DNA of 32,000 nt from Pseudoalteromonas tetraodonis (GCF_002310835.1 NZ_CP011041.1:1260001-1292000); one strand, 5' to 3'. Positions 3,305-23,520 are shown, counted from the first letter of the stretch. Translations and numbers: made by a program. The notes: generated by a model from the sequence alone, not told the origin.

Positions 3305-5578
3305 ATGCACTTTCTCAATAAGTACTTCTTACTTAACGATCATCATACTGCCCATGATGAAGTCGCACACTGGCGGGTGAGTGCACTACGGATAATTTTA
3401 ACGCTCGTTACTTTGCTCTGTTTTTTGGTCGTTTGTTATACATACACCCGCGCAATTGAATTTAACCTAATTTATATTGCAGTTATTACTATTAGTTTTT
3501 TCACTATTGCTTTTAGTCTTTTATTAGCAAGTAAGCGATTTTACACATTTAGTGCAAATGCACTTCTATTAACTATCGTTGCCGGTAGTTTATCAATGAA
3601 TTTATTTTTAACTGACTTAGAGCTTGCCAAGGTGGGTTCTATGTTTATGTATTCATGTCCCATCATTGCTCTTATGCTACTCGGTTACAGAACGGCTTTG
3701 GCCTACGGTATTTTAAACATCATACCTTTTTACATGATTATTAATAATGTTGATTTATCCGGCTATTCAGGAATAGCAAGCCAATTACCAGAAGCTGACT
3801 TATATATTACAGGCCTAATATTTTTATTTTTTAATATTTGTATCCCACTTGCCACTGCGCGAACAATTGTTGCTGCCAAACGTTTAAACAAAACCATGTT
3901 AAATGCTAATAGCTTCCTTAAAGATAAAAACGAGCTTTATCGCACCTTATTTACTGAATCTAATAAAGCTAAAATTATTGTCGACGAAAATTTAGTAATT
4001 ACAGATTTAAATCAACATGCTATTGAAATGTTTGGATTAAAAAACAGCTTGAAAGAAAAGGCTGTCAGAATTGATGGGTTATTCCCTGCACTTAATAGCA
4101 AAGAGTTAAATATAAAAAATCAAATCATAGAATATAAGAGTCGCTACTATAAGAGTAATTATCAGCAAATAGCAATGAGTACAAATTATCGAGTGTATGA
4201 CTTTTATGATTGCACGCAAGAGCAGTTAATTAAACAAAACTTGTCTATGATGGAGCAAGAGAACAAACGTCTAAGGTTTAGAGACTCGCAAACGAAATTG
4301 CCTAATCGAGAGTGGTTTGAAATGCAATGCGATAGGTTAACGTCTAAATACCAAAAAGGGTTTTATATTGTCGTTACACAAAGCGCAAATAGTGAATATT
4401 TAAATTTAAAACTTAACAAAGCTGACTCGCAATCATTGCTAATTACTGCTTATAAGCGCTTAAAAGCAATGTCAGAGGGGCCTTTGCTTTGTGCGTCTAT
4501 AGAAGGTGGCAAACTTGGCTTTATTATTGGTTCAAGCTCAAGTGAACAGCAAAACAAGTTATTAATACAAATTAAAAGCACCTTAGATCAAGCTTATGAT
4601 GTGTTTGGTACTAATTACCAACAATCATTTTTATTTGGTTTTGCTAAGTGTCCTGAGCATGGTGAAAATAGTGCGATTGTTCTTAGTAATGCGTGTGAGG
4701 CGCTCAAACTCGCAGACTATAACTCGCCATTTAATGGTTACAATCAAAAACAATCACAGGCCTTTATGGAAAAGTATGAAATTTCCATGTTACTTGATGA
4801 AGCTTTGCAACAAAATGATCTGTCAGTACATTATCAACCTAAAGTGAATGCAAAAGGTGAATGTATAGGGCTTGAAGCATTAGCTCGTTGGCATAGCTCT
4901 GTACTTGGCAGTGTATCGCCCGCTGTATTTATTCCTATTGCAGAAGAGTATAGAATGATTAGCCGATTAACGGACTTAATTATTCAAAAAGTCTGCGCTC
5001 AAATTGCCCAATGGAGTAAAGTTGGTTTGCCACTTTTACCCGTAGCAATAAACATATCTTTACTCGATTTTAGCCAAGCTGATTTTATGTCAAAGTTGGT
5101 AAAATATTTGGCGGATTTTAATGTAAAACCGAATCAAATAGAATTAGAGCTTACTGAAACGTCACTTGAGGCTAACCAAGTTCACTCTCTAAAACTTATG
5201 CAAACTCTGCAAGATTGGGGGTTCACTATTACAGTGGATGATTTTGGTGTTGGATACTCGAATATTGCACGACTTGCTGATTATCCCATTGATAAACTTA
5301 AATTGGATCGCTCTTTAATAAGTAAGGTTACAAGCTCTACACGCCAAAAAAGCTTAGTTAAAGCCGTGCATGTGATGTGTGATGAACTTAATATTAAGTG
5401 TGTAGCCGAGGGAGTAGAAACCGAAGAACAGGTCCTAATAATGTCCGAAATGGGATGTAAAGAGTTTCAAGGCTATTACTTTTCTAAACCTATGAGTGCT
5501 CAGGTTTATGCTGAATATATAAATCAAAATGGTCTGCTTTTTACGACAAAAAACTTAGCTACGGCGAAAAGTAGCTGA
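3305..5578 (+). CDS. Membrane sensor with PAS, degenerate GGDEF and EAL domains (putative c-di-GMP phosphodiesterase)
   Basis: N-terminal multi-TM region followed by a PAS-like block (LYRTLFTESNKAKIIVDENLVITDLN). The GGDEF position reads EGGKLGF, which is degenerate. Intact EAL motifs are present: EALARW, ELELTE, DDFGVGYSN, KLDRSL, AEGVETEEQ, QGYYFSKP. Confidence 0.9.
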   Translation: MHFLNKYFLLNDHHTAHDEVAHWRVSALRIILTLVTLLCFLVVCYTYTRAIEFNLIYIAVITISFFTIAFSLLLASKRFYTFSANALLLTIVAGSLSMNLFLTDLELAKVGSMFMYSCPIIALMLLGYRTALAYGILNIIPFYMIINNVDLSGYSGIASQLPEADLYITGLIFLFFNICIPLATARTIVAAKRLNKTMLNANSFLKDKNELYRTLFTESNKAKIIVDENLVITDLNQHAIEMFGLKNSLKEKAVRIDGLFPALNSKELNIKNQIIEYKSRYYKSNYQQIAMSTNYRVYDFYDCTQEQLIKQNLSMMEQENKRLRFRDSQTKLPNREWFEMQCDRLTSKYQKGFYIVVTQSANSEYLNLKLNKADSQSLLITAYKRLKAMSEGPLLCASIEGGKLGFIIGSSSSEQQNKLLIQIKSTLDQAYDVFGTNYQQSFLFGFAKCPEHGENSAIVLSNACEALKLADYNSPFNGYNQKQSQAFMEKYEISMLLDEALQQNDLSVHYQPKVNAKGECIGLEALARWHSSVLGSVSPAVFIPIAEEYRMISRLTDLIIQKVCAQIAQWSKVGLPLLPVAINISLLDFSQADFMSKLVKYLADFNVKPNQIELELTETSLEANQVHSLKLMQTLQDWGFTITVDDFGVGYSNIARLADYPIDKLKLDRSLISKVTSSTRQKSLVKAVHVMCDELNIKCVAEGVETEEQVLIMSEMGCKEFQGYYFSKPMSAQVYAEYINQNGLLFTTKNLATAKSS

Positions 5579-5695: not shown

Positions 5696-6862
5696 TTATT
5701 CAAACACTCCTTTTATAACTGCATGGGTGTTTTGCACCATTAATGTGCCGTTAGCCCATACATACTCAGGGGTTAGGGTCTCTTTATCGAGAAGGACAAC
5801 ATCCGCGTCGCTCGCTGCTTTAAGACGGCCTTTATCAACTCCTAAAATATCGGCAGGATTACTGGTTATGCTCATTAAAGCGTGCTCAATAGGGACGTTA
5901 TATTCTTTGACTGCTTGCTGAAACGAGGTTAATAAAGATGCCTCTTTGCCCACCTCAAGCCCTAATAAATTAAAGTCTTTATCAAAAATAGGTAAACTGG
6001 CATGGCCATCTGAGCTCATAGTGAGTTGATTTGGTGCTACGCCTTGTTCTAAGCAGTAGGCAAGGGCATGGGCTGCTGCATATTCACCATGGGCTAAATC
6101 ATAGTCGGTTGTGCTGGTGGTAAAGTCGATAGTACCGCCCTGATCACAAAAGTGAATACCGGCATCAAGAAGTGCTTTATTGCGGTTCATATGCGTAGGA
6201 TAAAACTGTTTAAGCTTAATATCACTTTGCTCAGCCACCTGATGTAAAATAGTTAAATGGCTATCAACAGGGCCAACATGAATACTCACAGTGCCTTTTT
6301 TACCACTGAGCATACCGGCTACTTTGGCCTCTGCTGCCAATTCTGCTAATTGCTGTACCGTAGGTTGGCTACTACGATGATCAGAAATCGCCACTTCGCC
6401 AACACCTATAAACTCCTCTATATACATGATGTCGTCAGTAATTGAGTGGGTGAGTGTTTTCGCGGGTAAATGATACGAACCGGTATGGCAAAATACATTC
6501 AGCCCTTGCTCTTTTAGGCCTTTTGCTTTGGCAACCAAGTTGGTCAGTGTACGTGAGCTTGAATCGGTACCCAGTGCGGCCACCACCGTGGTGGTGCCCG
6601 ATAAGGTTGCATCTGTTAGGTTCATTTCAGGGGTGCGGCTGGCAAATCCAGCCTCGCCACCGCCACCGGTAATATGCACTAAAGAATCAACAAACCCCGG
6701 CGCAACCAGCTTATTTTTACCGGCAATCCGTTTGACGAGTACACTGCTGTCGAGGGTTATATTTTCGTCAATAGCAATGATTTTACCACCGCCAATTAAA
6801 ACATCTTGTGTGCCTAGGAAGGTAGGTGCATAAACGGTTGCACCTTGAATTAAAGTTAACAT
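5696..6862 (-). CDS. iadA: Isoaspartyl (beta-aspartyl) dipeptidase
   Basis: 388 aa, collinear with E. coli IadA as I recall it: PGF.D...H..GGGGEAG, AISDHRSS, PTHMNRN, GGTIDFT, SSDG, C-terminal KGVFE. Amidohydrolase fold. Confidence 0.9.
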   Translation of the reverse strand: MLTLIQGATVYAPTFLGTQDVLIGGGKIIAIDENITLDSSVLVKRIAGKNKLVAPGFVDSLVHITGGGGEAGFASRTPEMNLTDATLSGTTTVVAALGTDSSSRTLTNLVAKAKGLKEQGLNVFCHTGSYHLPAKTLTHSITDDIMYIEEFIGVGEVAISDHRSSQPTVQQLAELAAEAKVAGMLSGKKGTVSIHVGPVDSHLTILHQVAEQSDIKLKQFYPTHMNRNKALLDAGIHFCDQGGTIDFTTSTTDYDLAHGEYAAAHALAYCLEQGVAPNQLTMSSDGHASLPIFDKDFNLLGLEVGKEASLLTSFQQAVKEYNVPIEHALMSITSNPADILGVDKGRLKAASDADVVLLDKETLTPEYVWANGTLMVQNTHAVIKGVFE

Positions 6863-8388: not shown

Positions 8389-8412
8389 GCCGCAAAGCGT
8401 TTGCTTTGCGGC
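8389..8412 (-). terminator. Hairpin downstream of the TonB-dependent receptor gene
   Basis: Perfect 10-bp stem gccgcaaagc / gctttgcggc with loop gttt, 8 nt after the receptor stop. The U-run on the minus strand is partial (attcctttt). Confidence 0.6.
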
Positions 8413-8419
8413 TAAGCGG

Positions 8420-11380
8420 TTAAAAACGGTAGCTAATACTTAATTTGTAATTAGCACCTAGGGCATTATGGTTGATTGAATCAAAGCCACGGCTTGAACC
8501 ATAAAGTGTGGGTGGCTCTTTATCAAAAATATTATTGATGCGCGCGCGCAAAGTCAGCGATTTATTAACATAGTAACCCGCTGATAAATCCCAAACGAGC
8601 CAGTCATCAACCTGATGCTCACCTTTTGAGTCTAATACGCCAAGTGAATCTAGCTCATCAATTTCACGGCTACGCAGGCCTTCTATATCATCCTCGTAGC
8701 TGCTGGTGTAGTTTGCACCTAAGTTAAGGTAGTAACTTTGCGCTTCCCAATCTATTGACATACGCGCAATATTTTCAGGATAACGATATGTACCCACTAG
8801 CTTTTCAATTGAGTCTGAGCCCGGTTTGTTGCGTTCAAATTCAAGGTAGTGAGTACCGTCAAAAGCGAAGGTTAAGTCGCCGCCAGATAACGCAAAGCGA
8901 TGGTCAAATTTAATATCAATACCCGCTAACGTTTGTGTACCAGTGTTTTCAAGCGGAATGACATGGTCGCGGAATAAGGGTAAGTAGTCTTCACCAGGAC
9001 GGGGATTAAAGTTATCTGGGTTTTTATCGCCAGCTTTGTTATCTTCATCAACATAGTTAGCTAAAATCTCAGTTAAATTAGCGCCGTCTTGCTCTATGTT
9101 TAAACCACTGTTGTCGGTGACATCACATAATGCTTCATCGTACGATATGCCTTGCTCGCCCGGTGGTACAATGCCACAGTGACGAAGTGATGCATCGGTT
9201 ATGGCGCGATCTAACACAGCGGTCATGTTGGTATCGATTACTTCTTCATGATCAAACTGCCAATAATCAATGGTTAAATTAGTATTAGCCGAGGGACTCC
9301 ATGCAAAACCAACACTAATAGCCTCAGATTCTTCTGCATTTAGATTTGGGTTACCTAACTCTAACGAATTAACACTCACTTGGGTGCCATCACCCATACA
9401 GTATAAATCGGCTACAGCTTGGTTTGCACCACAGTCAAAAGTAGATTGTGTGGTTCTTAATTTAACGCCAGCCTGTGTTAATGATGGTGCTCTAAACGAG
9501 GTTGACCATGAACCACGAACAACTAACGAATCAGTTGGGCGATAGCTCAAACCTATTTTAGGATTAAAGGTGCCACCAAAATCATCGTAATGATCGTATC
9601 GACCTGCTGCTTGCAGCTCTATTTGCTCTGTGAGTGAAATACTTAATTCAGCAAACGCTGCATATTGAGTGCGATCGGCTTCTGATAAACTAGAGCCAAA
9701 GCCAAATACATCAACAAGATAGTCTTTATCTGCTTGAGCTTGTGAATCAAGCGAAGGAATGTCGCTTAGCTCTTCACGGCGTGCTTCTACCCCAAATGAG
9801 GCATAGGCAGGCAGGTCGTTAAAGGTAAATAGCTCACCATTAAAATTAGCATCCCAGCCGTAAACTGTACTTTCTCCGCTGCGTGTTGGGCGAGCTTGCG
9901 CTGTTGCCAAAACGGCATCATTAGCGGCGTCGCCTTGAAGGAAAGGGTTGTAAAAAGGCAGCAGTTCTCCCGATGCACAGTTTAAGTCAGTACCGTCATA
10001 ACTTGCCAGCGTACCGTCTGAACATAGCTCGCCGGTGATAGCGCCATGGAACTGGTAACGATTATAAACTCCTGCAATCGCTTCTTGCTCTGAACGTGAG
10101 CGAGAAAAGGTTACCCCAGATTCCCAACCCCAATCACCAATTTCACCACTTAGACTGCTTACCAAGCGAAAGTTTTTCGTTTCTACTTCCACCGTTCTTG
10201 GGGCATTAAAGCGCGCATCAAATGCAAAACCATACACTTCTCGACCACTTTGGGTATCAAATGGGTCAATGTAGAGTTGATCTAATAAATCATTACTACC
10301 ATCGGCATTATCGTAAATAAATAAGGCGTCTTCTAAAACATACGGGCCGTCGTCGTCATTAATTTGGTTAATAGGTGAGGGCGATGAGTACGCTTTTGCC
10401 TTGGTCTGACTGTAAAAAAAGTCAGTATGCCATTGCATACCACCAAGCTCACTATTAAACATAAAGCCGGTTGAAATGCTTTCAAATGGCGTTTCTAGGT
10501 AATCATCTTGATTAGGGTAGTAAGCACAAATTTGTTCATCTAATTCAGTAGTAACTAATTCGGTTTTGCAGTTTGGTGATGGAAGTTCGTTACCATCTCG
10601 GCTGCTGAAATAATAAATATTAGGTGAGTTCTCCAGCTTAGGTAAATAGGAGTAACCATTCACTAAAGAGGGAGAGGCCGTGTAATTACGATCGGTCGCT
10701 TTAAAAGCGTTACGGTCATATATATCAGCAAATACCGTTAAATTACTTTCGCCTATTTTTGTACCATAAACTAAGTTTAATTGTTTTTTACTTTCGTCAT
10801 GCTGATCAAAGCTATCGGCAAACGAAGTATTGATTTCAGCGCCTTCAAAATCATCTTTTAAAATATAGTTAATAACACCTGCCACAGCATCGGCACCATA
10901 AACGGCTGATGCGCCTGTGGCTAAAATATCAATGCGCTCAATGGCGGCTAGTGGAATAGAGTTTACATCTACAAAGTTTTCAGTACCTGCAGCAAATGAA
11001 CTAGGTGCAACTCTTCGCCCATTTATTAATGTCAGCGTTGCTGATGGCCCCATGCCTCTTAAGCTCGCAGCTGATTGACCCGCTGGTGTTGAGGTAGACG
11101 TACCGCCACTTTCAGAGGTTGAAAATGTGCCGCTTCCGCCCTTAAAAACAGATAAATCTTTGAGTAATTCATGAATGGTATTAGCGCCAGAGCGTTTGAT
11201 TGCATCTTGGTCTAGTACGGTTAATGGGATAGTTCCTTCAAGATCAACGCCTTTTAAGCGAGATCCTGTTACTTCTACTCGTTCAATGTTGGTGTCGGTG
11301 TTGGTTTCTTGTGCATGTGCAAAAGTGATCGGGTTCAGTAATGCGCTTACTGTGGCCGCAATTGTTAGTTGACGAAACAT
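8420..11380 (-). CDS. TonB-dependent outer-membrane receptor (large, 986 aa)
   Basis: Signal peptide ending AHA/QE, plug region (ERVEVTGSRLKG...IPLTVLDQDAIKRSGANTIHELLKDL), long beta-barrel, and a C-terminal aromatic residue (..SISYRF). Confidence 0.92.
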   Translation of the reverse strand: MFRQLTIAATVSALLNPITFAHAQETNTDTNIERVEVTGSRLKGVDLEGTIPLTVLDQDAIKRSGANTIHELLKDLSVFKGGSGTFSTSESGGTSTSTPAGQSAASLRGMGPSATLTLINGRRVAPSSFAAGTENFVDVNSIPLAAIERIDILATGASAVYGADAVAGVINYILKDDFEGAEINTSFADSFDQHDESKKQLNLVYGTKIGESNLTVFADIYDRNAFKATDRNYTASPSLVNGYSYLPKLENSPNIYYFSSRDGNELPSPNCKTELVTTELDEQICAYYPNQDDYLETPFESISTGFMFNSELGGMQWHTDFFYSQTKAKAYSSPSPINQINDDDGPYVLEDALFIYDNADGSNDLLDQLYIDPFDTQSGREVYGFAFDARFNAPRTVEVETKNFRLVSSLSGEIGDWGWESGVTFSRSRSEQEAIAGVYNRYQFHGAITGELCSDGTLASYDGTDLNCASGELLPFYNPFLQGDAANDAVLATAQARPTRSGESTVYGWDANFNGELFTFNDLPAYASFGVEARREELSDIPSLDSQAQADKDYLVDVFGFGSSLSEADRTQYAAFAELSISLTEQIELQAAGRYDHYDDFGGTFNPKIGLSYRPTDSLVVRGSWSTSFRAPSLTQAGVKLRTTQSTFDCGANQAVADLYCMGDGTQVSVNSLELGNPNLNAEESEAISVGFAWSPSANTNLTIDYWQFDHEEVIDTNMTAVLDRAITDASLRHCGIVPPGEQGISYDEALCDVTDNSGLNIEQDGANLTEILANYVDEDNKAGDKNPDNFNPRPGEDYLPLFRDHVIPLENTGTQTLAGIDIKFDHRFALSGGDLTFAFDGTHYLEFERNKPGSDSIEKLVGTYRYPENIARMSIDWEAQSYYLNLGANYTSSYEDDIEGLRSREIDELDSLGVLDSKGEHQVDDWLVWDLSAGYYVNKSLTLRARINNIFDKEPPTLYGSSRGFDSINHNALGANYKLSISYRF

Positions 11381-14103: not shown

Positions 14104-14132
14104 AAAGCCACACTTAATTAGTGTGGCTTTTT
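14104..14132. terminator. Bidirectional rho-independent terminator
   Basis: Stem aaagccacac / gtgtggcttt followed by a T-run on the plus strand, abutting the stop of the minus-strand ORF. Confidence 0.75.
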
Positions 14133-14724
14133 AGTTTGATAGCCCCAGTTCTTGCTTATGCTCAAGTTGATATAAGCTTGAATATTCACGTTTATGCACT
14201 TCAAATAAATACGCTCTCAGTTGCTCTTTACCATGGTGAATATGCTTTATTTTAGCTGCTATGCCACACTCACTGTGCCTAACGGGTTCTATGTCTAATG
14301 ATATAGCCGCTTCATTGGGTAAAATAAATTGCATATTTTGTAACTCATCAAGTTCACTGTTTATTGATGTGGGTTTTAAAAATATTCCTGTGCTTGAGAT
14401 AGATTCAATGCAAAAACCTTGGCTTTGAATATTTAATTCACTTAATCGCCAGCTACGTTGAGTGCCTTTAGTATCAATCACTTCTGGGGCTGCTAACACA
14501 GTACTGAAATGGCCTAATTCATCAGTTTTAAATTGAAGTGGAAACCACAGTTGGTAATGAGCTACTTCTGCTAATAGGGTTAATTTAGCCTGACCAAGTA
14601 AATGCGCAATACCATCTGGTATTGATGTTTGTACTGTTAGTTTTGTTTCATTAATTAATGCTGTACTTTGACTAGGTTCAAACAACCCAGATAAAAAGTT
14701 AATTTCTTCGTCAGACAAATCCAT
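14131..14724 (-). CDS. Hypothetical protein, possibly a non-canonical PilZ-domain protein
   Basis: 197 aa with a strong SD (aaggaaaa, 7 nt upstream). QRSWRL, followed about 20 residues later by SISSTGIFL, resembles degenerate forms of the PilZ motifs RxxxR and D/NxSxxG. Confidence 0.55.
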   Translation of the reverse strand: MDLSDEEINFLSGLFEPSQSTALINETKLTVQTSIPDGIAHLLGQAKLTLLAEVAHYQLWFPLQFKTDELGHFSTVLAAPEVIDTKGTQRSWRLSELNIQSQGFCIESISSTGIFLKPTSINSELDELQNMQFILPNEAAISLDIEPVRHSECGIAAKIKHIHHGKEQLRAYLFEVHKREYSSLYQLEHKQELGLSN

Positions 14725-17205: not shown

Positions 17206-17748
17206 ATGGACTTTATTGCTACCGCATTTTTCTTTTTAGTTCTTCTAATCGCTTTATCTATTGTTTGGAGCACGCTAAAAACGGGAATTTCACCGATGAT
17301 GAGCTCAAGCAAAGCGCGACAAGCTATGCTTAATGCAATAAGCATGGATGAAAAAGGCGCATTAATTGATTTAGGTTCAGGTTGGGGAACGCTCGTTATA
17401 GCGGTTGCCAAAAAGCATCCTAATAAACAGGTTATTGGCTATGAGTTATCGTGGTTTCCCTGGTTAATTTCAATGCTTTTTAAATATAGTTTAGGTTTAG
17501 ATAACCTTACCCTCTATCGTAAAGACTTTAAAAATGCCGATTTTAGTACAGTGTCTACTCTGGTGTGTTACTTGTTTCCAGGTGGTATGGTAGCGCTTGA
17601 AGAAAAGTTAAAACATGACGTAGTTAATAATAAAATCACTATTGTGAGTAACACCTTCGCTTTGCCATCATACAAACCAACTAACGTTATCAAGCTTAAA
17701 GATTTTTACCAAACACCGATTTATGTGTATCACTGGCAACCCAAATAG
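17206..17748 (+). CDS. Membrane-anchored class I SAM-dependent methyltransferase
   Basis: N-terminal TM helix (FIATAFFFLVLLIALSIVW) and SAM motif I LIDLGSGWGTLVIAV. I prefer the ATG at 17206 (aggtg 9 nt upstream) over the GTG at 17194. Confidence 0.8.
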   Translation: MDFIATAFFFLVLLIALSIVWSTLKTGISPMMSSSKARQAMLNAISMDEKGALIDLGSGWGTLVIAVAKKHPNKQVIGYELSWFPWLISMLFKYSLGLDNLTLYRKDFKNADFSTVSTLVCYLFPGGMVALEEKLKHDVVNNKITIVSNTFALPSYKPTNVIKLKDFYQTPIYVYHWQPK

Positions 17749-17765
17749 ATGAGTATTATTTAGGG

Positions 17766-19493
17766 TCAGTGCTTAGTTGATGTCATATTTTTTATCCATA
17801 AGTTCATCTTCTCTGCAGACATTGGTTTGGCAATATAATAACCTTGCCCATGATAGCAACCCATGCCTATAAGTACTTTTTCGAGCTCTTGTGACTCTAT
17901 CCCCTCTGCAACTAGGTTATACCCAAATGCTTTACTTAGCGCCACGATACACGTAACGATGGACTTGTCTTCATGGTCTGATAGGAGCTTTTTAACAAAG
18001 CTTTGATCTATTTTTAATGTATCTAAAGGTAATTTTTTTAAGTAACTCAACGAAGCATAACCTGTACCAAAGTCGTCTAGCGCAATACTTACCCCTAAAT
18101 CGCGGCAGCCATTGAGAACGTCGACTGCTTGGTCAACGTTTCCAATTGTAGTGCTCTCTAAAATTTCCAATTCGAGGGTTTTTGGTTTTATATTATTAGT
18201 GCTGATGAGTAACTCTCTGAGGTTTTCAACAAAGCCCTCACTAAGTAAATGAGCTGGAGAGATGTTTACACTCATAGAAAGATGATTTCTTGTCCAAATT
18301 TTATGCTGTTTTAAGGCCTCAGCAAGTACCCATTCACCAATTAAAATACCAATGTGTGGATGCTCTAATGCCTCTGAAAAGTGACCAGGATAAAGTAAAC
18401 CCAAAGTAGGGTGATTCCAGCGTATTAAGGCTTCAACGCCAATCAACTGGTGATCCATCAAATTTACCTTTGGTTGATAATGTAAAATAAACTCTTTGCG
18501 AGCAATGCCTTTTTCAGCAGCCAATAATAAATCATGTTTTGCATGCCTTAGGCTTTCTTCTTCTGGATCAAAAAACAGAATTCGGTTTGTTCCTGATCTT
18601 TTTGCTTGGTACATTGTTTGATCGGCTCTGCGTAAAATGTCATCACAAGTTAAGCCATCATCACTGGGAAGTGCAACGCCGATGCTGACTGAAATTTGAA
18701 CGGAGCACGAAAACTCTGCTAATTTTATTGGGTCGTTTACCTCAATCAGCACCTCTTGTAACAGAGTCTCATATTCTTGTATCGTGTGCGCAGCCCCTCT
18801 TAATAAAAAGATAAACTCATCTCCGCCAATACGCGCGAGTGTATCTTCTTTGCGTAATGTGCTTTTTAGTCTTTGGGCAATAGTTTTCAAAACGAAGTCA
18901 CCGGTTTCGTGACCGTATTTGTCATTAATGGGTTTAAAATTATCTAAATCTAAATAGGCAACGGCGAGCTTTTGCTCAGATGTAATGGCCTGTTGGAGTT
19001 GATCAATTAAAATAGGGCGGCTTGCTAAGCCTGTTAGGCTATCGTAGTGTGCCATGTCATGAAGTTTTTTTTCTAAGTTTGCGCGTTGAATTGAGCTAGA
19101 TATAGAGTGTATCAACTGATCGCTTTTTAATTGATTTTTAAGTAAATAATCGCTTGCTCCTAGCCGCATAGCTTCTGCTGCTATTTTTTCATCTCCTAAG
19201 CCCGTGATCATAATCACAGCACAGTGGTTATTTTCAGTCTTTCTAATATTATTTAGCAGGGTAAGCCCCGATCCGATACCTAATCGGTAATCAACTATGA
19301 CACAATCAAACTCACCATGTTCAAGGTAAGACATCGAACTTTCAATAGAGGATGCCTCTGAAATTTTCGCCTGTATATTTGAGCGAGATATCATACGACG
19401 TATTTGTTCTCTATCAACCGCATCGTCATCAACAATGAGTAGGTTAATACTGTCGCAGGTTTCAAAATTATCTATTGAAGTTATCATATCCAT
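17766..19493 (-). CDS. Response regulator with REC-GGDEF-EAL architecture
   Basis: REC domain (LLIVDDDAVDREQI...DCVIVDYRLG). Intact GGDEF (ARIGGDEFIFLL). EAL motifs EALIRW, ELEILES, DDFGTGYASL, KIDQSF, AEGIES, QGYYIAKP. Confidence 0.92.
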   Translation of the reverse strand: MDMITSIDNFETCDSINLLIVDDDAVDREQIRRMISRSNIQAKISEASSIESSMSYLEHGEFDCVIVDYRLGIGSGLTLLNNIRKTENNHCAVIMITGLGDEKIAAEAMRLGASDYLLKNQLKSDQLIHSISSSIQRANLEKKLHDMAHYDSLTGLASRPILIDQLQQAITSEQKLAVAYLDLDNFKPINDKYGHETGDFVLKTIAQRLKSTLRKEDTLARIGGDEFIFLLRGAAHTIQEYETLLQEVLIEVNDPIKLAEFSCSVQISVSIGVALPSDDGLTCDDILRRADQTMYQAKRSGTNRILFFDPEEESLRHAKHDLLLAAEKGIARKEFILHYQPKVNLMDHQLIGVEALIRWNHPTLGLLYPGHFSEALEHPHIGILIGEWVLAEALKQHKIWTRNHLSMSVNISPAHLLSEGFVENLRELLISTNNIKPKTLELEILESTTIGNVDQAVDVLNGCRDLGVSIALDDFGTGYASLSYLKKLPLDTLKIDQSFVKKLLSDHEDKSIVTCIVALSKAFGYNLVAEGIESQELEKVLIGMGCYHGQGYYIAKPMSAEKMNLWIKNMTSTKH

Positions 19494-19510
19494 ATCTCTT
19501 GCAAAATGGC

Positions 19511-19933
19511 TTATTCAAGCTCAACGGCATGTATATAAGCATCCATAAGTGTCGCTAATTTGGCAAACTGCGGGCCAATTGCATGTTTAACCATGTAACC
19601 TGCTACGTTGTTATGGTACGCGCGAGTACGATCGTTATCCTCATTGGAGGTCGTGAGTATAAATACAACGGTATCGTTTAATTTTTTATCTTTACGAATA
19701 TGCTCTAAAAATTCAAACCCATTCATCACTGGCATATTCAGGTCTAACAATACTAAGTAGGGCTCTGATATTACTTTTTGTTGTGCTTTTTCTCGTAACG
19801 CATCTAACGCAAGTTTTCCATTTTGTTTCCAAATTATTTTAATTTTAGGATCCACTTTTTTTAGGCTTCTTGTTACGGCTTCCGCGGCAACATCATCGTC
19901 TTCAACAAGCAGTATAGATAGATTTTTGATCAT
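19511..19933 (-). CDS. Single-domain response regulator (REC only, Rcp1-like)
   Basis: MIKNLSILLVEDDDVAAE...LVLLDLNMPVMNGFEFL...ILTTSNEDNDRTRAY..AGYMVK. The ATG at 19933 overlaps the kinase stop (ATGA) and has an SD (aaggaaagag). Confidence 0.88.
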   Translation of the reverse strand: MIKNLSILLVEDDDVAAEAVTRSLKKVDPKIKIIWKQNGKLALDALREKAQQKVISEPYLVLLDLNMPVMNGFEFLEHIRKDKKLNDTVVFILTTSNEDNDRTRAYHNNVAGYMVKHAIGPQFAKLATLMDAYIHAVELE

Positions 19934-21411
19934 AAATTCTCTTTCCTTGCAAAGCGCGGCCACCAAACATGAAATGTAGACCCTTTTTGCGGTTCATTTG
20001 AGCTAACGGAAATGCGCCCACCATGAGCTTGTGCCAGACGCCGACTAATAGACAGCCCAATACCTGAGCCTGACTTATCGTCAGAGGTTGTTTGAAATAA
20101 ACTAAAAATACGTTCGTAAGCTTCTGGTGGTATACCGGGGCCATCATCAGTCACAGTGATATGGCAAAGCGTATTTTCTGCTACACAACGAATCTCTATA
20201 GTTCCCTCTTTACTGTCGTGATGTTTAATGGCGTTACTTAATAAATTGCGGACAACGGTTTCAAGTGGCGTCCATGCAGTGACGATAGTATCTAATTGAA
20301 CGTCTTTATGAAGCTTCATTCCAGCAGGTAAATCTAATAGTTCGGTAACGTTAGAGATTAATTTATGCATATCGATTACTTGAGTATCTAGGGTAGCTTT
20401 GCCAGCTCTTGCATAGGCCAATAAATTATCAATTAACGTCTCCATTTTATGAATACGATCATCAATACGCGTTAAGTTGTACTCTACTTCAGGCGTGGTA
20501 GTGCCTAAATCTTCTTTTATCCATTCAATTAAGTTTGAAATGCCACGCAATGGAGAGCGTAAATCATGAGAGGCCACATAGGTAAACTCTTTCAGGCTAG
20601 TGTTATTTTCTCTTAGCTCAGTTTCCATTTGTTTTCGTTCTGTTATATCTAACAACGAGACAAACACCATGTCTTCATCATTGGTGTTTATAAAAGGACT
20701 CAAGCCTACTTCAACCGGGAATTCTTTACCGTCTTTGTGTAACGCGGTTAAATCTCTACCTACTCCCATACTTCTTACACTGGGTTCACGGTGAAATGAA
20801 TGACGAAGTGCTGAGTGATGCCCTTGGTAGCGCTGCGGTAATAACATTTCCATTTTTTTATCGAGTAGCTCTATTTCACTGTAACCAAAAGATTTACATA
20901 ACGATTGATTAACCGCTTGAATAATGCCCGCTTGGTCAACTATTAACACACCATGTGGTGCAGCTTGAATAGATCGTTGAAACATATTATTAGCGCGCAG
21001 CCTTTGCGATATATCAACCAGTGTGGCTAAAACTAATTCTTGTTGTCCTTGTATTGGGTTTAAACCTATTTCAATTGGGATTTGCTTACCACTTTTTTGA
21101 CTCGCAAATAACTCACGGCCTTCACCCATTAAGCGTTTTCGAGGGTTAGCAAAAAACTGACTCATCAAGTGGGTATGATTGGCTTTAAATTGAGCTGGAA
21201 GTAAATTATCTATGTTCATCCCTATGAGTTCTGAATCCTCATAGCCCAGTATTTCAGACAGTTGATTATTGGCAAAAAGGATCTGAGCATCAGTATTAAC
21301 TACCATTGCCCCCATGGGTAAACAATTAACTAGTTGAGTTAAAAATGCTTCATCCATATTTACAGTTAAACTTGGTGAGTTAGATTTTTTATTTACTTTT
21401 TTAAGGTCCAT
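19930..21411 (-). CDS. Cytoplasmic sensor histidine kinase (PAS-PAS-HisKA-HATPase)
   Basis: Two PAS-like blocks, H-box VASHDLRSPLRGI, N-box LLSNAIKH, and G-boxes DDGPGIP / GSGIGLSISR. The start is uncertain; MDLKK at 21411 is preferred over the ORF-maximal 21477. Confidence 0.88.
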   Translation of the reverse strand: MDLKKVNKKSNSPSLTVNMDEAFLTQLVNCLPMGAMVVNTDAQILFANNQLSEILGYEDSELIGMNIDNLLPAQFKANHTHLMSQFFANPRKRLMGEGRELFASQKSGKQIPIEIGLNPIQGQQELVLATLVDISQRLRANNMFQRSIQAAPHGVLIVDQAGIIQAVNQSLCKSFGYSEIELLDKKMEMLLPQRYQGHHSALRHSFHREPSVRSMGVGRDLTALHKDGKEFPVEVGLSPFINTNDEDMVFVSLLDITERKQMETELRENNTSLKEFTYVASHDLRSPLRGISNLIEWIKEDLGTTTPEVEYNLTRIDDRIHKMETLIDNLLAYARAGKATLDTQVIDMHKLISNVTELLDLPAGMKLHKDVQLDTIVTAWTPLETVVRNLLSNAIKHHDSKEGTIEIRCVAENTLCHITVTDDGPGIPPEAYERIFSLFQTTSDDKSGSGIGLSISRRLAQAHGGRISVSSNEPQKGSTFHVWWPRFARKENL

Positions 21412-21545
21412 CAAGCATCCCGCAAGTAAATTTAGTTCCCATAATATAGTAATAGTCGAACAAGTAATGAACAGCAAATCTAGCGAAAGATCATGTTATA
21501 TAAATGCCCATTTTAATAGTTTCTTCTTATATTTTAGCGAGTCAT

Positions 21546-21872
21546 TATGGTTAAAAAAGGCACATTGATTTAGGATCGGGTTGGGGTATGTTGGTTTTAG
21601 TGCGTATTAAATATAGTTTGGGTTTAAATAACCTTACTCTTTATCGCAAAGACTTCAAAAATGCTTATCACAGTACTGCGTCTACTCAGGTGTGTTACTT
21701 GTTTCCTGTTGGTATGCTAGCGTTTGAAGATAGACTCAAATATGATGTAGCTAACAAAATGACCATGGTGAGTAATACCTTCGCTTTGCCATTACATAAA
21801 CCAACTAAAGTGATCAAACTTAAATATTTCTACCAAACGCCTATTTATGTGTGGCACTCGCTACCAAAGTAA
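21546..21872 (+). pseudogene. Decayed, N-terminally truncated paralog of the 17206..17748 methyltransferase
   Basis: Hand alignment: HIDLGSGWGMLVLV, then an in-frame deletion of about 25 codons, then KYSLGLNNLTLYRKDFKNA...FYQTPIYVWHSLPK, against IDLGSGWGTLVIAV..KYSLGLDNLTLYRKDFKNA...FYQTPIYVYHWQPK. An in-frame TAA lies at 21552-21554, and the TM helix and first ~55 codons are absent. Confidence 0.8.
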
Positions 21873-21883
21873 ACTTTGCCTGA

Positions 21884-22225
21884 AGTCTTAACACAAACGG
21901 CAGCAGCTTTGTCGCGATTTTTAATTGCGATACTTATTGGTGCAATAAGCTAATACTGCTTGAAGCTGATAAACTTTATCTCAATGCTCATAATAAAACT
22001 ATAGAATTAACAAAAGAGCTTGAGAAAAATAGAAATGCATACCGAAAGCTTGTATTCGATAATGAATCACTTAATGGAAAGATGGATTTAATTAAATCTG
22101 AAACATGTAAGCTTAATAACGTATTTAAGCTTAATACACTAAGCAATATAACTACACCAACAAAGAATGAATTGATACTAGCAATACAAAGCTTAAGAAA
22201 TATTGACAAAATATTGAAAGAGTAG
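21884..22225 (+). pseudogene. Start-less coiled-coil ORF fragment (possible gene remnant)
   Basis: The frame is open for 113 sense codons after a TGA, but the first ATG is at 22082. The sequence is Lys/Asn/Leu/Glu-rich and heptad-like (..ELTKELEKNRNAYRKLVFDNESLNGKMDLIKSE..). No family recognised. Confidence 0.25.
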
Positions 22226-22289
22226 TTTATTTGAATAGTTTGTAACCCGCACCCTGCGGGGAGGGCTATGCGTGTAAGAAAGCTCCAAA

Positions 22290-22499
22290 ATGAAACTTCT
22301 TCTCAAACGCTTTCTAACTCCCGCCGGTATCTATGGAACATTCGGTGAGCTGTATGTATAACATACGTTATTTTGTTACACCGTTGAGCTTGAGTTGAAG
22401 AAAACCATAGGGGTAAATCTTGACTTCAGACATTACGGCTATTTAGCATCTACTCATAGCTGCATATCAATGACCTCAAACCAATACATCAATAATTAA
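22290..22499 (+). pseudogene. Small ORF interrupted by an in-frame TAA (possible phage-associated DUF5675-like remnant)
   Basis: MKLLLKRFLTPAGIYGTFGELYV*HTLFCYTVELELKK... The pattern (short N-terminal K/R stretch, T.GEL, C.T.EL) recalls a small phage/bacterial family. This assignment is from memory only. Confidence 0.2.
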
Positions 22500-22702
22500 A
22501 GCAGTTACGTGCTTCTTTATTATTTGAAAAGTATTTAACTGTGGGGTCACATAATCTCAATATCTTTGAAATCATAAAAAGCAGGAAAACAGTCAATAAA
22601 TTGGTTGGTGCGATAAATGTGCGATATTTTTTATTATTAAATTAGCTAGTACGAAAGTAAAATGGTTTTTATTGGATGAAACTGAATTCTGAAGAGTTTT
22701 AA

Positions 22703-22779
22703 ATGGTCGGTATGGAGAGATTCGAACTCTCGACCCCTGCCACCCCATGACAGTGCGCTACCAAGCTGCGCCACATACC
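22703..22779 (-). tRNA. tRNA-Pro (anticodon GGG)
   Basis: Reverse complement: CGGTATG TG GCGC AGCTTGGTA GCGC A CTGTC ATGGGGT GGCAG GGGTC GAGAG TTCGAAT CTCTC CATACCG A CCA. The cloverleaf is perfect at 77 nt with an encoded CCA, and is close to E. coli proL as I recall it. Confidence 0.95.
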
Positions 22780-22896
22780 GACTTCGACTGCAATAGTACG
22801 TGTATTTTTAAAAAAATCAATAAGCATTTGTTTGTTTGGATGTTTATTGCGCAAGCGTTTAATATTAAGCGCTTGCGCCAGAAGTTTTACACGGCT

Positions 22897-23520
22897 TTAC
22901 TCTTTATTTAACCACTGGTTGATCGTGTTATACATTTCATCTCGTAGTATTGGTTGCGCAGTTTTGTTAGGGTGTAAGTTATCGTTTTGCATTAGCTCGC
23001 TTTTGCCTGCTACTTTAAGTACAAAAAACGGCATTAAATACGAGCCTGTGGCTTTGCTAACACTGGCAAAGCTATCGGTGAACATTTTACTGTAACGTGG
23101 GCCATAGTTAGGTGGAATATAAATTTCCATTAGCGCGGTTTGTGCATCTATTGCTTGGCTTTTTTCAATTAGAGCGGTCAAGTTGTCTTGCATTTTAGTA
23201 ATTGGGAAACCGCGTAGACCGTCATTAGCGCCAAGCTCTATGAGCACATGAGTTGGTTGATATTGCTCAAGCAATGCATCAAGTCTGCGCAGGGCGCCAC
23301 CAGTGGTTTCACCGCTAATACTGGCATTAACTAAATTGAGATTACGTTGCTCGGCATCGTATTTATCTTGTAACAATTGCACCCAGCCTTGTTCTTGTTT
23401 TAAGCCATAGGCTGCGCTTAAACTGTCACCAAGTATTAAAATCGTGTTGTTAGCTGCCACAGTAAGCGGGTTAATAACTAAAAATAAAATAAATACAAAA
23501 CGTAGGATTGAATGAGTCAT
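22897..23520 (-). CDS. tesA: SGNH/GDSL acyl-CoA thioesterase I / lysophospholipase L1
   Basis: Signal peptide, block I ILGDSLSAAYG, block III GANDG, block V DNLHPN. It is divergent from ybbA-ybbP as in E. coli. Confidence 0.9.
   Translation of the reverse strand: MTHSILRFVFILFLVINPLTVAANNTILILGDSLSAAYGLKQEQGWVQLLQDKYDAEQRNLNLVNASISGETTGGALRRLDALLEQYQPTHVLIELGANDGLRGFPITKMQDNLTALIEKSQAIDAQTALMEIYIPPNYGPRYSKMFTDSFASVSKATGSYLMPFFVLKVAGKSELMQNDNLHPNKTAQPILRDEMYNTINQWLNKE

Follow-up and report, generated by a model that had tools for sequence, protein, structure and literature searches.

An intact and a decayed methyltransferase copy around a c-di-GMP operon in Pseudoalteromonas tetraodonis: most likely a scar of ordinary recombination

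How did a three-gene signalling operon come to lie between an intact gene and a decayed copy of the same gene, arranged as if an incoming element had supplied that gene with a replacement 3′ end? The question is raised by a 32,000-nucleotide stretch of Pseudoalteromonas tetraodonis DNA (GCF_002310835.1, NZ_CP011041.1:1260001-1292000; the whole stretch is referred to as the window, and positions are counted from its first letter), in which a gene for a small class I S-adenosylmethionine (SAM)-dependent methyltransferase (MTase), a minus-strand operon for cyclic di-GMP (c-di-GMP) signalling, an incomplete second MTase copy and a tRNA-Pro gene follow one another. A first reading made without database searches (the sequence-only reading) had seen in this order the footprint expected of an element that integrates into the 3′ part of a gene, and had offered an old tandem duplication as the alternative. 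We compared the window with about 25 related loci from strains and from metagenome bins or contigs, including P. undina LITK01 (L001), M58 (L002), M30B23 (L004), RW-H-Ap-1 (L009), P. ostreae (L010), MER144 (L014) and Pseudoalteromonas sp. SM9913 (L017), to whose chromosome I the window is ~99.8% identical. Most likely, the locus is an ordinary recombination scar in the variable spacer between the conserved MTase gene and the tRNA-Pro gene, and not the footprint of a mobile element.

The displaced 3′ end of the methyltransferase gene

The 3′ part of the MTase gene is repeated in direct orientation beyond the operon (arms A and B, Table 1), with a core of 277 nt that is ~82% identical. Local alignment paired 17468-17623 with 21595-21750 (127/156 identical, 81%) and 17627-17747 with 21751-21871 (99/121, 82%), the second block being set off from the first by one 3-nt indel, and a repeat search returned the same pairs in addition to 17344-17367 against 21547-21570 and 17365-17401 against 21564-21600. 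The repeat that the sequence-only reading had aligned by hand (second copy at 21546..21872) is thus no artefact of that alignment, and the similarity of the copies stops at both stop codons, as had been stated. The second copy begins at MTase codon 46 and therefore lacks the N-terminus; an in-frame stretch of 72 nt (24 codons), the counterpart of 17392-17463, is missing from it, and translation from 21547 reaches TAG after 8 codons. Its decay had been described in nearly these terms (an in-frame deletion of ~25 codons, an upstream stop and no N-terminus), but a further 4-nt deletion, which shifts the frame, had been missed. A frame of 94 codons is still open at 21588-21872; a Pfam scan of this open reading frame (ORF) gave no match. 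Annotators should treat this ORF as the remnant of a gene, although the related assemblies examined here list it as a gene. The intact MTase matches Pfam MTS (E 1.8e-05), its NCBIfam matches being sub-threshold only, and has homologues (n = 928) that are 92-95% identical within Pseudoalteromonas and 62-76% identical in Colwellia, Psychromonas, Parashewanella, Neptunomonas and an Oleiphilaceae genome.

Comparison of empty and occupied sites in sister strains, which the sequence-only reading had proposed, is provided by the sister genome M30B23. Its site is empty: a single 179-aa MTase ending at 10537 is followed by 240 bp, the tRNA-Pro gene (10778-10854) and tesA. The M30B23 MTase and the genes upstream of it are 94% identical to the window up to the stop codon of the intact copy, where the match ends (17750); window 21592-21916 matches M30B23 10260-10588, across the M30B23 MTase stop codon, and in finer alignment the flank of the decayed copy (21873-21948) matches M30B23 10543-10627. 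This flank also aligns downstream of MTase sequence in P. undina and P. ostreae, and terminator-like hairpins on the MTase strand near either copy were found solely at 21898-21932, right after the decayed copy. Because the native flank and the hairpins follow the decayed copy alone, these alignments indicate that the decayed copy is the displaced 3′ end of the resident gene in its native setting, and that the 3′ end of the intact copy abuts the operon.

The left junction of the decayed copy, CAT(T/C)ATGG and then (T/G)T(A/G)AAAAAGG, is common to 18 loci (L001, L009, L014-L020, L022, L024, L031, L087, L144, L145-L147 and L148), and was read directly in all of these except L145-L147, for which it was inferred from position matches. 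The 18 loci comprise eight SM9913-like strains or metagenome bins, two short metagenome contigs, four P. undina-like loci, P. issachenkonii, sp. RW-H-Ap-1, sp. MER144 and a strain labelled P. tetraodonis. Because all share one left junction, the sequences point to one ancient event with subsequent lineage-specific decay. In the SM9913/undina/issachenkonii group, a complete MTase gene precedes the operon. The decayed copy of L148 retains codons 46-180 complete, without the 72-nt deletion, and aligns with 17343-17747 over 414 nt (82.6%); the 72-nt deletion is present in the window and in P. undina, where the copy has acquired a stop codon and a frameshift as well; and the copy is cut at window position 21736 in RW-H-Ap-1, 21637 in MER144 and 21704 in L144. 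A metagenome scan with the junction motif gave at least 119 matches, almost all of them due to chance; L031 and L087 alone carry the locus, both in the window arrangement.

The shared junction bears on the alternative offered by the sequence-only reading, namely an old tandem duplication of the whole MTase gene with later insertion of the operon between the copies, which would have removed the 5′ end of the second. Such a history would account for two copies in direct orientation, and their high divergence is compatible with its age, but two full-length copies occur in none of the ~25 loci, and the gene is single in M30B23, in H105 and in the more distant genera. Further, the first nucleotide is the same in all decayed copies, the native flank, expected on both duplicates, is missing after the intact copy, and there may be a 16-nt remnant of the native spacer to the left of the cassette (see below). 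We therefore set this history aside as highly improbable, the least probable of the origins weighed here, and retain recombination at the resident MTase gene as the preferred reading.

The ratio of nonsynonymous to synonymous substitution rates (dN/dS) is 0.49 between two decayed copies, compared with 0.10-0.18 between functional copies; judged by this ratio, constraint on the decayed copies is relaxed. Synonymous divergence (dS) is ~0.6 between the intact and the decayed copy, versus ~0.4 at the deepest split among carriers, and the arrangement is therefore old.

Several intact copies show peculiarities of their own. In RW-H-Ap-1 (L009, ~10420-10440) the operon-side MTase, otherwise of the intact form, contains an in-frame TAG (translation ...EDKL*HD...), so that both copies may be dead in this strain, or the codon may be a sequencing error. 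In the SM9913-like assemblies L016 (9186-9668) and L018 (9186-9638) the MTase is called shorter, at 160 and 150 aa, which could reflect another start call or an N-terminal lesion. The intact copies of L146, L145 and L148 (at 8400-8430, corresponding to window 17612-17632) carry a short patch in the state of the decayed copy or of M30B23, with one codon lost (179 versus 180 aa); the patch resembles the product of gene conversion, either from repeat to repeat or among alleles.

The c-di-GMP operon and its junctions

Between the repeats are three signalling genes only, encoding a PAS-PAS histidine kinase, a single-domain REC protein and a REC-GGDEF-EAL response regulator, all on the minus strand. 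The sequence-only reading had recognized this content from the sequence, together with the ATGA overlap of the kinase stop and REC start and the convergence of the MTase and GGDEF-EAL genes across 17 bp (17749-17765) without a hairpin, and on these points our analysis agrees. All Pfam domains of the operon (HisKA, HATPase_c, REC, GGDEF and EAL) were above cut-offs, those of the response regulator being EAL (1.6e-68), GGDEF (1.5e-42) and Response_reg (2.2e-21); in its translated sequence the GGDEF motif, an RxxD site 5 residues upstream, EAL and DDFGTG all appear intact. Going by these domains, the kinase would sense a cytoplasmic signal via its PAS domains and phosphorylate the REC-GGDEF-EAL protein, which would then shift c-di-GMP synthesis or breakdown, and the single-domain REC protein would serve as a competing phosphate acceptor. 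Gene starts were corrected by homologues (MTase ATG 17206, REC 19933 and kinase ATG 21411).

The operon occurs well beyond this locus. The exact 140-aa REC protein is present in 313 blocks of the assembly collection, and the closest kinases belong to one Pseudoalteromonas cluster (97%), to Pseudoalteromonas sp. S558 (78%) and to Marinomonas (60-68%). In both Marinomonas sp. A3A and Pseudoalteromonas sp. S558 the same three genes stand in the same order among unrelated chromosomal neighbours, with no MTase nearby; between the window cassette and the S558 and Marinomonas operons similarity was confined to coding sequence, and none was found in non-coding DNA. M30B23 and H105 do not have the operon at this locus. 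Because the P. ostreae operon is 92.5% identical to that of the window and the flanking tesA-ybbP block 75%, there is a clear sign, as far as sequence identity can tell, that the operon has been exchanged horizontally between Pseudoalteromonas lineages, recently in the case of P. ostreae. The operon is a conserved and self-contained signalling unit, mobile in the evolutionary sense, and not a mobile element. A plasmid origin was rejected after blastn of the cassette against 72,556 plasmid records, in which no record with the operon was found and the only matches were short ones to the EAL domain (70-78%).

At the right junction, similarity of the window to M58 and P. ostreae stops at 21550, where the shared cassette sequence ends ...TCATTATGG and continues into three different sequences. 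The MTase reads ...AAGCATGG followed by ATGAAAAAGG, with codons 45-46 reading ...GCATGGATG; because these codons and the cassette end both carry ATGG, the four nucleotides could belong to either partner. In M58, the sequence 22 nt past the junction resembles the first nucleotides of the decayed copy (14/16, a score that 16 of 2000 shuffles reach or exceed), and M58 is probably a derivative of the arrangement with that copy. In P. ostreae, a remnant of the decayed copy was sought to the right of the cassette, and the match was not significant (247 to 1358 of 2000 shuffles reach the score).

At the left junction the window reads CCCAAATAG-ATGAGTATTA-TTTAGGGTCA and P. ostreae ACGTAAATAC-AGGAGTAGTG-TTTAGGGTCA, the P. 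ostreae spacer running from ACGTAAATAC into AGGAGTAGTG before the cassette; because the two readings agree there, AAATA is shared. The MTase ends in CCCAAATA(G/A), and the native gene in CC(A/C)AA(A/G)TAA. Window 17741-17756 (AAATAGATGAGTATTA) resembles the P. ostreae sequence directly left of the cassette (AAATACAGGAGTAGTG), and the M58 and P. ostreae versions of the sequence left of the cassette are 19/23 identical when read by eye. The 16 nt left of the cassette are also loosely like the M30B23 spacer (ACGTTAAGAACTAGAAGTGG), as judged by eye, and ~16 nt at this position may derive from the native spacer. A repeat search for terminal inverted or direct repeats at the cassette ends gave nothing above chance-level short matches; the only repeat that flanks the operon is the gene segment itself (405 nt versus 326 nt, ~82% identity), and the junction overlaps are 4-5 nt.

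Table 1. Positions of the MTase copies, the c-di-GMP operon and adjoining features in the window.
Feature	Position	Strand	Basis or remark
Small class I SAM-dependent MTase, intact	17206..17748	+	ATG 17206 to TAG 17748, 180 aa; family without assigned function
Repeat arm A, MTase codon 46 to stop codon	17344..17748	+	Local alignment and repeat search
Convergent MTase/GGDEF-EAL spacer, 17 bp	17749..17765		Without terminator-like hairpin
REC-GGDEF-EAL response regulator, 575 aa	17766..19493	-	Pfam domains
Single-domain REC protein, 140 aa	19511..19933	-	Pfam; start overlaps kinase stop
PAS-PAS-HisKA-HATPase_c histidine kinase, 493 aa	19930..21411	-	Pfam
Upstream region of kinase	21412..21550	-	Shared cassette sequence ends ...GAGTCATTATGG at 21550
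Repeat arm B, decayed MTase copy, codon 46 to stop codon	21547..21872	+	Alignment
Native MTase downstream flank with terminator-like hairpins at 21898-21914 and 21910-21932	21873..21948	+	Alignment to relatives
Strain-variable filler, missing in M30B23	21949..22450		Alignment
Native spacer beside tRNA gene, common to relatives	22451..22703		Aligns with L004 10641-10777, also L001, L002, L009 and L144
tRNA-Pro(GGG)	22704..22780	-	ARAGORN and Rfam
GDSL esterase (TesA-like), conserved right-hand anchor of the variable region	22897..23520	-	Synteny in L002, L003, L004 and L010

Variable DNA on the tRNA-Pro side

The ~830 bp from the decayed MTase copy to the tRNA-Pro gene are non-coding in the window, and nearly all lineages examined have different DNA in this interval. 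The P. ostreae operon lies ~190 bp downstream of a fragment with MTase codons 146-180 and native flank; strain-specific genes come after it (L010, 14153-15727), among them an IS66-type tnpA remnant. The remnant is a 99-aa ORF read as IS66-family tnpA, with an IS66-like end near 14510-14530; after it come a P-loop protein (GPNGSGKT, 210 aa) and an overlapping 81-aa partner, which are possibly a toxin-antitoxin pair. In strain M58 (L002, 14494-15675) and one other strain (loci L021/L023), a 393-aa fusion of a MerR domain and a SAM-methyltransferase, unrelated to the small MTase, replaces the decayed copy and filler.

L148, from a strain 98% identical to the window, keeps this identity as far as window position 21600, within the decayed copy, and is 80% identical beyond it, in a different allele of that copy. 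Because identity switches within it, the decayed copy appears to have been used as a homology arm in a later exchange. Following the decayed copy, L148 (13304-15222) carries a 452-aa reverse-transcriptase (RVT_1) gene and a 186-aa gene, a block that looks like a retron or other defence system. The filler of the window contains a start-less 91-codon frame on the plus strand, rich in Lys, Glu, Leu and Asn and ending at 22225, which is probably the 3′ remnant of a lost gene, and after this frame a G+C-rich inverted repeat (ACCCGCACCCTGCGGGGAGGG) near 22240-22262; a 73-aa ORF on the opposite strand (21988-22209) is likely spurious.

The 3′ end of the tRNA-Pro gene is an island integration site in relatives, and is unoccupied in the window. 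In P. undina LITK01 (L001, 16312-17824) the 3′ 45-49 nt of tRNA-Pro are followed by a called integrase gene, and in MER144 (L014, reverse strand, 5723-5771) the tRNA-Pro 3′ end is followed by a short contig-end ORF that was read as an integrase N-terminus; these two relatives alone have a tRNA 3′-end repeat with an adjacent integrase. Phage-like genes (Peptidase_S24) are found at tRNA-Pro in L022 (1-3900), with no integrase within the stretch covered. In the window, the tRNA-Pro 3′ 24-mer occurs in the tRNA gene alone, with no second copy at up to 3 mismatches, and no integrase families were found among the ORFs scanned across the 32 kb, the remaining genes matching non-integrase genes in related loci; the sequence-only reading, too, had seen no integrase.

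These observations bear on a site-specific integrative element that would have targeted the MTase gene, brought its own replacement 3′ end and since lost its recombinase. The geometry fits, with a restored gene, an original 3′ end moved to the far side together with its native flank, and an empty site in a sister genome, and integrase-bearing islands do use the neighbourhood in relatives. However, the ORFs scanned in the window include no recombinase, no att-like repeat was found beyond the gene duplication itself, and the integrases of relatives, which are strain-specific, lie past the decayed copy, at the 3′ end of tRNA-Pro. In addition, the content is a chromosomal signalling operon only, which has ordinary surroundings in Marinomonas; the P. 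ostreae operon is in the spacer and not in the gene. We consider such an element very unlikely. Of the integration footprint that had been claimed, the displaced original 3′ end stands (native flank, hairpins and the empty site of M30B23), but the integrating element is not supported, given the lack of a recombinase and of a tRNA-end repeat and junctions of 4-5 nt; ordinary recombination is still the favoured account of the scar.

Beyond the esterase gene follow ybbA/ybbP-like, ruvCAB and tolQRA-like genes. The window contains a second c-di-GMP gene (3305-5578), which encodes a 757-aa MASE11-PAS-GGDEF-EAL protein and has a G+C content clearly below that of its neighbours (0.352; 0.30 at third codon positions, GC3); because its GGDEF match is weak (E 4.5e-05), this domain is probably degenerate. 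A 197-aa ORF at 14131-14724 has very low GC3 (0.24) and no Pfam match, and is conserved in relatives (58% identical in H105).

Proposed capture of the operon and comparison with known systems

The origin towards which we lean is capture of the operon by one homologous crossover and one illegitimate join at ATGG, or by Campbell-type insertion of a circle. Initially, the operon would have had the place that it has in P. ostreae, in the spacer that follows the MTase gene, and a deletion between two AAATA pentamers would have removed the native flank and brought the operon and the MTase stop codon to within 17 bp of each other. A DNA molecule with MTase plus operon would then have recombined with a plain chromosome of the order MTase, spacer, tRNA-Pro, with the homologous crossover falling either in or next to the MTase gene or on the side of tRNA-Pro and tesA, and the other end being joined illegitimately at the ATGG common to the right end of the operon and MTase codons 45-46. 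Resident codons 46-180 would thereby have been stranded downstream as a promoterless, N-terminally truncated copy that subsequently decayed. Campbell-type insertion of a circle containing the 3′ part of the MTase gene and the operon would yield an identical product.

The same two microhomologies would be used if the duplication had arisen in place. Here, unequal exchange at two ATGG in a chromosome of the order MTase, spacer, operon would have duplicated codons 46-180 with the spacer and the operon, after which deletions would have taken the first spacer copy and the second operon copy. This history would account for the possible spacer remnant left of the operon, and the divergence of the copies (dS ~0.6) is little above that at the deepest carrier split (dS ~0.4). 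However, three events would be required, one of them a clean loss of the second operon copy, of which there is no trace at 21873-22703. The comparison with M30B23 also speaks against it: immediately before the MTase gene M30B23 and the window are 98-99% identical, but in the last 126 nt of the gene only 85%, and within 17611-17680 M30B23 is 90% identical to the P. undina decayed copy compared with 81-83% to intact copies, and both the gradient and the closer match to the decayed copy better fit two alleles of different ancestry. The MTase and the genes before it keep their order in all relatives, with 94-99% identity, in a region that is mosaic, and the drop in identity at the 3′ end is compatible with a crossover there. 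We therefore regard duplication in place as unlikely.

Several points weigh against the capture account. Its order of events has been pieced together from present-day sequences rather than observed, and an intermediate with intact MTase, spacer flank and operon occurs in none of the sampled genomes; P. ostreae has only MTase codons 146-180 before its operon, and that block is itself imported. Both junction overlaps are short (ATGG and AAATA, 4-5 nt), and 4 nt is weak evidence. The ATGG overlap further depends on the point at which M58 and P. ostreae diverge, and because M58 probably comes from the decayed-copy arrangement, P. ostreae is the only independent witness for the right end. The empty site of M30B23 could be ancestral, or could result from secondary loss of the operon by recombination between the repeats. 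The phylogeny of the MTase 3′ segments that the sequence-only reading had suggested was run on 281 nt of the repeat by neighbour-joining, and in this mosaic region it gave no supported nodes (bootstrap at most 57%). The extra codon (NNK) of the intact copy is not strictly linked to the operon, since the intact copy beside it is 179 aa long in both the P. undina type strain and L148. The profile of composition and codon usage, likewise suggested, was run and proved uninformative: the operon (G+C 0.386, GC3 0.31-0.34) is inside the range of the neighbouring genes, and its composition therefore provides no independent sign of foreign origin.

As a consequence, the intact MTase and GGDEF-EAL genes now converge without a terminator, and direct repeats of ~280-400 bp with ~82% identity flank the operon; the repeats and the tRNA side would offer homology arms for later downstream exchange and, possibly, for operon loss. 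By pairing with the intact gene, the fragment could permit the operon to be lost and an intact MTase to be regenerated, with the M30B23 site and its mosaic gene as a product; paired with tRNA-Pro/tesA, it could permit downstream blocks to be swapped, as exemplified by the retron-like block of L148 and the MerR-methyltransferase gene of M58. More tentatively, and with some doubt, we propose that the decayed fragment has been a standing homology arm both for operon loss and for downstream swaps, and that the locus is a natural, population-wide record of homologous and illegitimate capture. To our knowledge, capture by one homologous and one illegitimate join has so far been documented mainly in the laboratory. 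The locus represents no new kind of system, being a recombination scar of a known kind; its value would be that of a worked natural example for research on horizontal transfer, in which a signalling operon enters a chromosome without mobile-element machinery, with the junction sequences in hand, and a leftover fragment shapes later gain and loss at the site.

Among known systems, phage 21 and e14 insert at icd in Escherichia coli and supply a substitute 3′ end; elements of this type encode an integrase and have a defined att core. The window shares with them a gene kept intact, an original 3′ end that is displaced and decaying, and empty and occupied sites among strains, but here the ORFs scanned include no integrase, no independent att core could be defined, and the cargo is a three-gene chromosomal operon. 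With tRNA-linked island hotspots the locus has in common variable DNA beyond the tRNA-Pro 3′ end, integrase islands in relatives and content that varies among close strains; it differs in that the tRNA site of the window is unoccupied, there is no tRNA-end repeat, and the operon is not bounded by island att sites. The operon itself has the domain set and the tight organization, with stop/start overlap, of two-component systems in which a REC-GGDEF-EAL output is combined with an additional single-domain REC protein, although in an NCBIfam scan of the operon proteins no equivalog reached cut-off, and their roles are predicted from domains. A parallel to the proposed capture is homology-facilitated illegitimate recombination, a process defined in laboratory transformation (in a PNAS paper of 2002; see also Meier and Wackernagel, 2003; both as cited in PMC6382021), for which PMC6382021 gives illegitimate joins at 3-10 bp with a single homologous anchor as the signature. 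Capture in the window is read from a scar, from which Campbell-type insertion would be indistinguishable, but it would share with the laboratory process, as described there, one homologous anchor and one join of 3-10 bp near that anchor, with no recombinase gene or att site needed.

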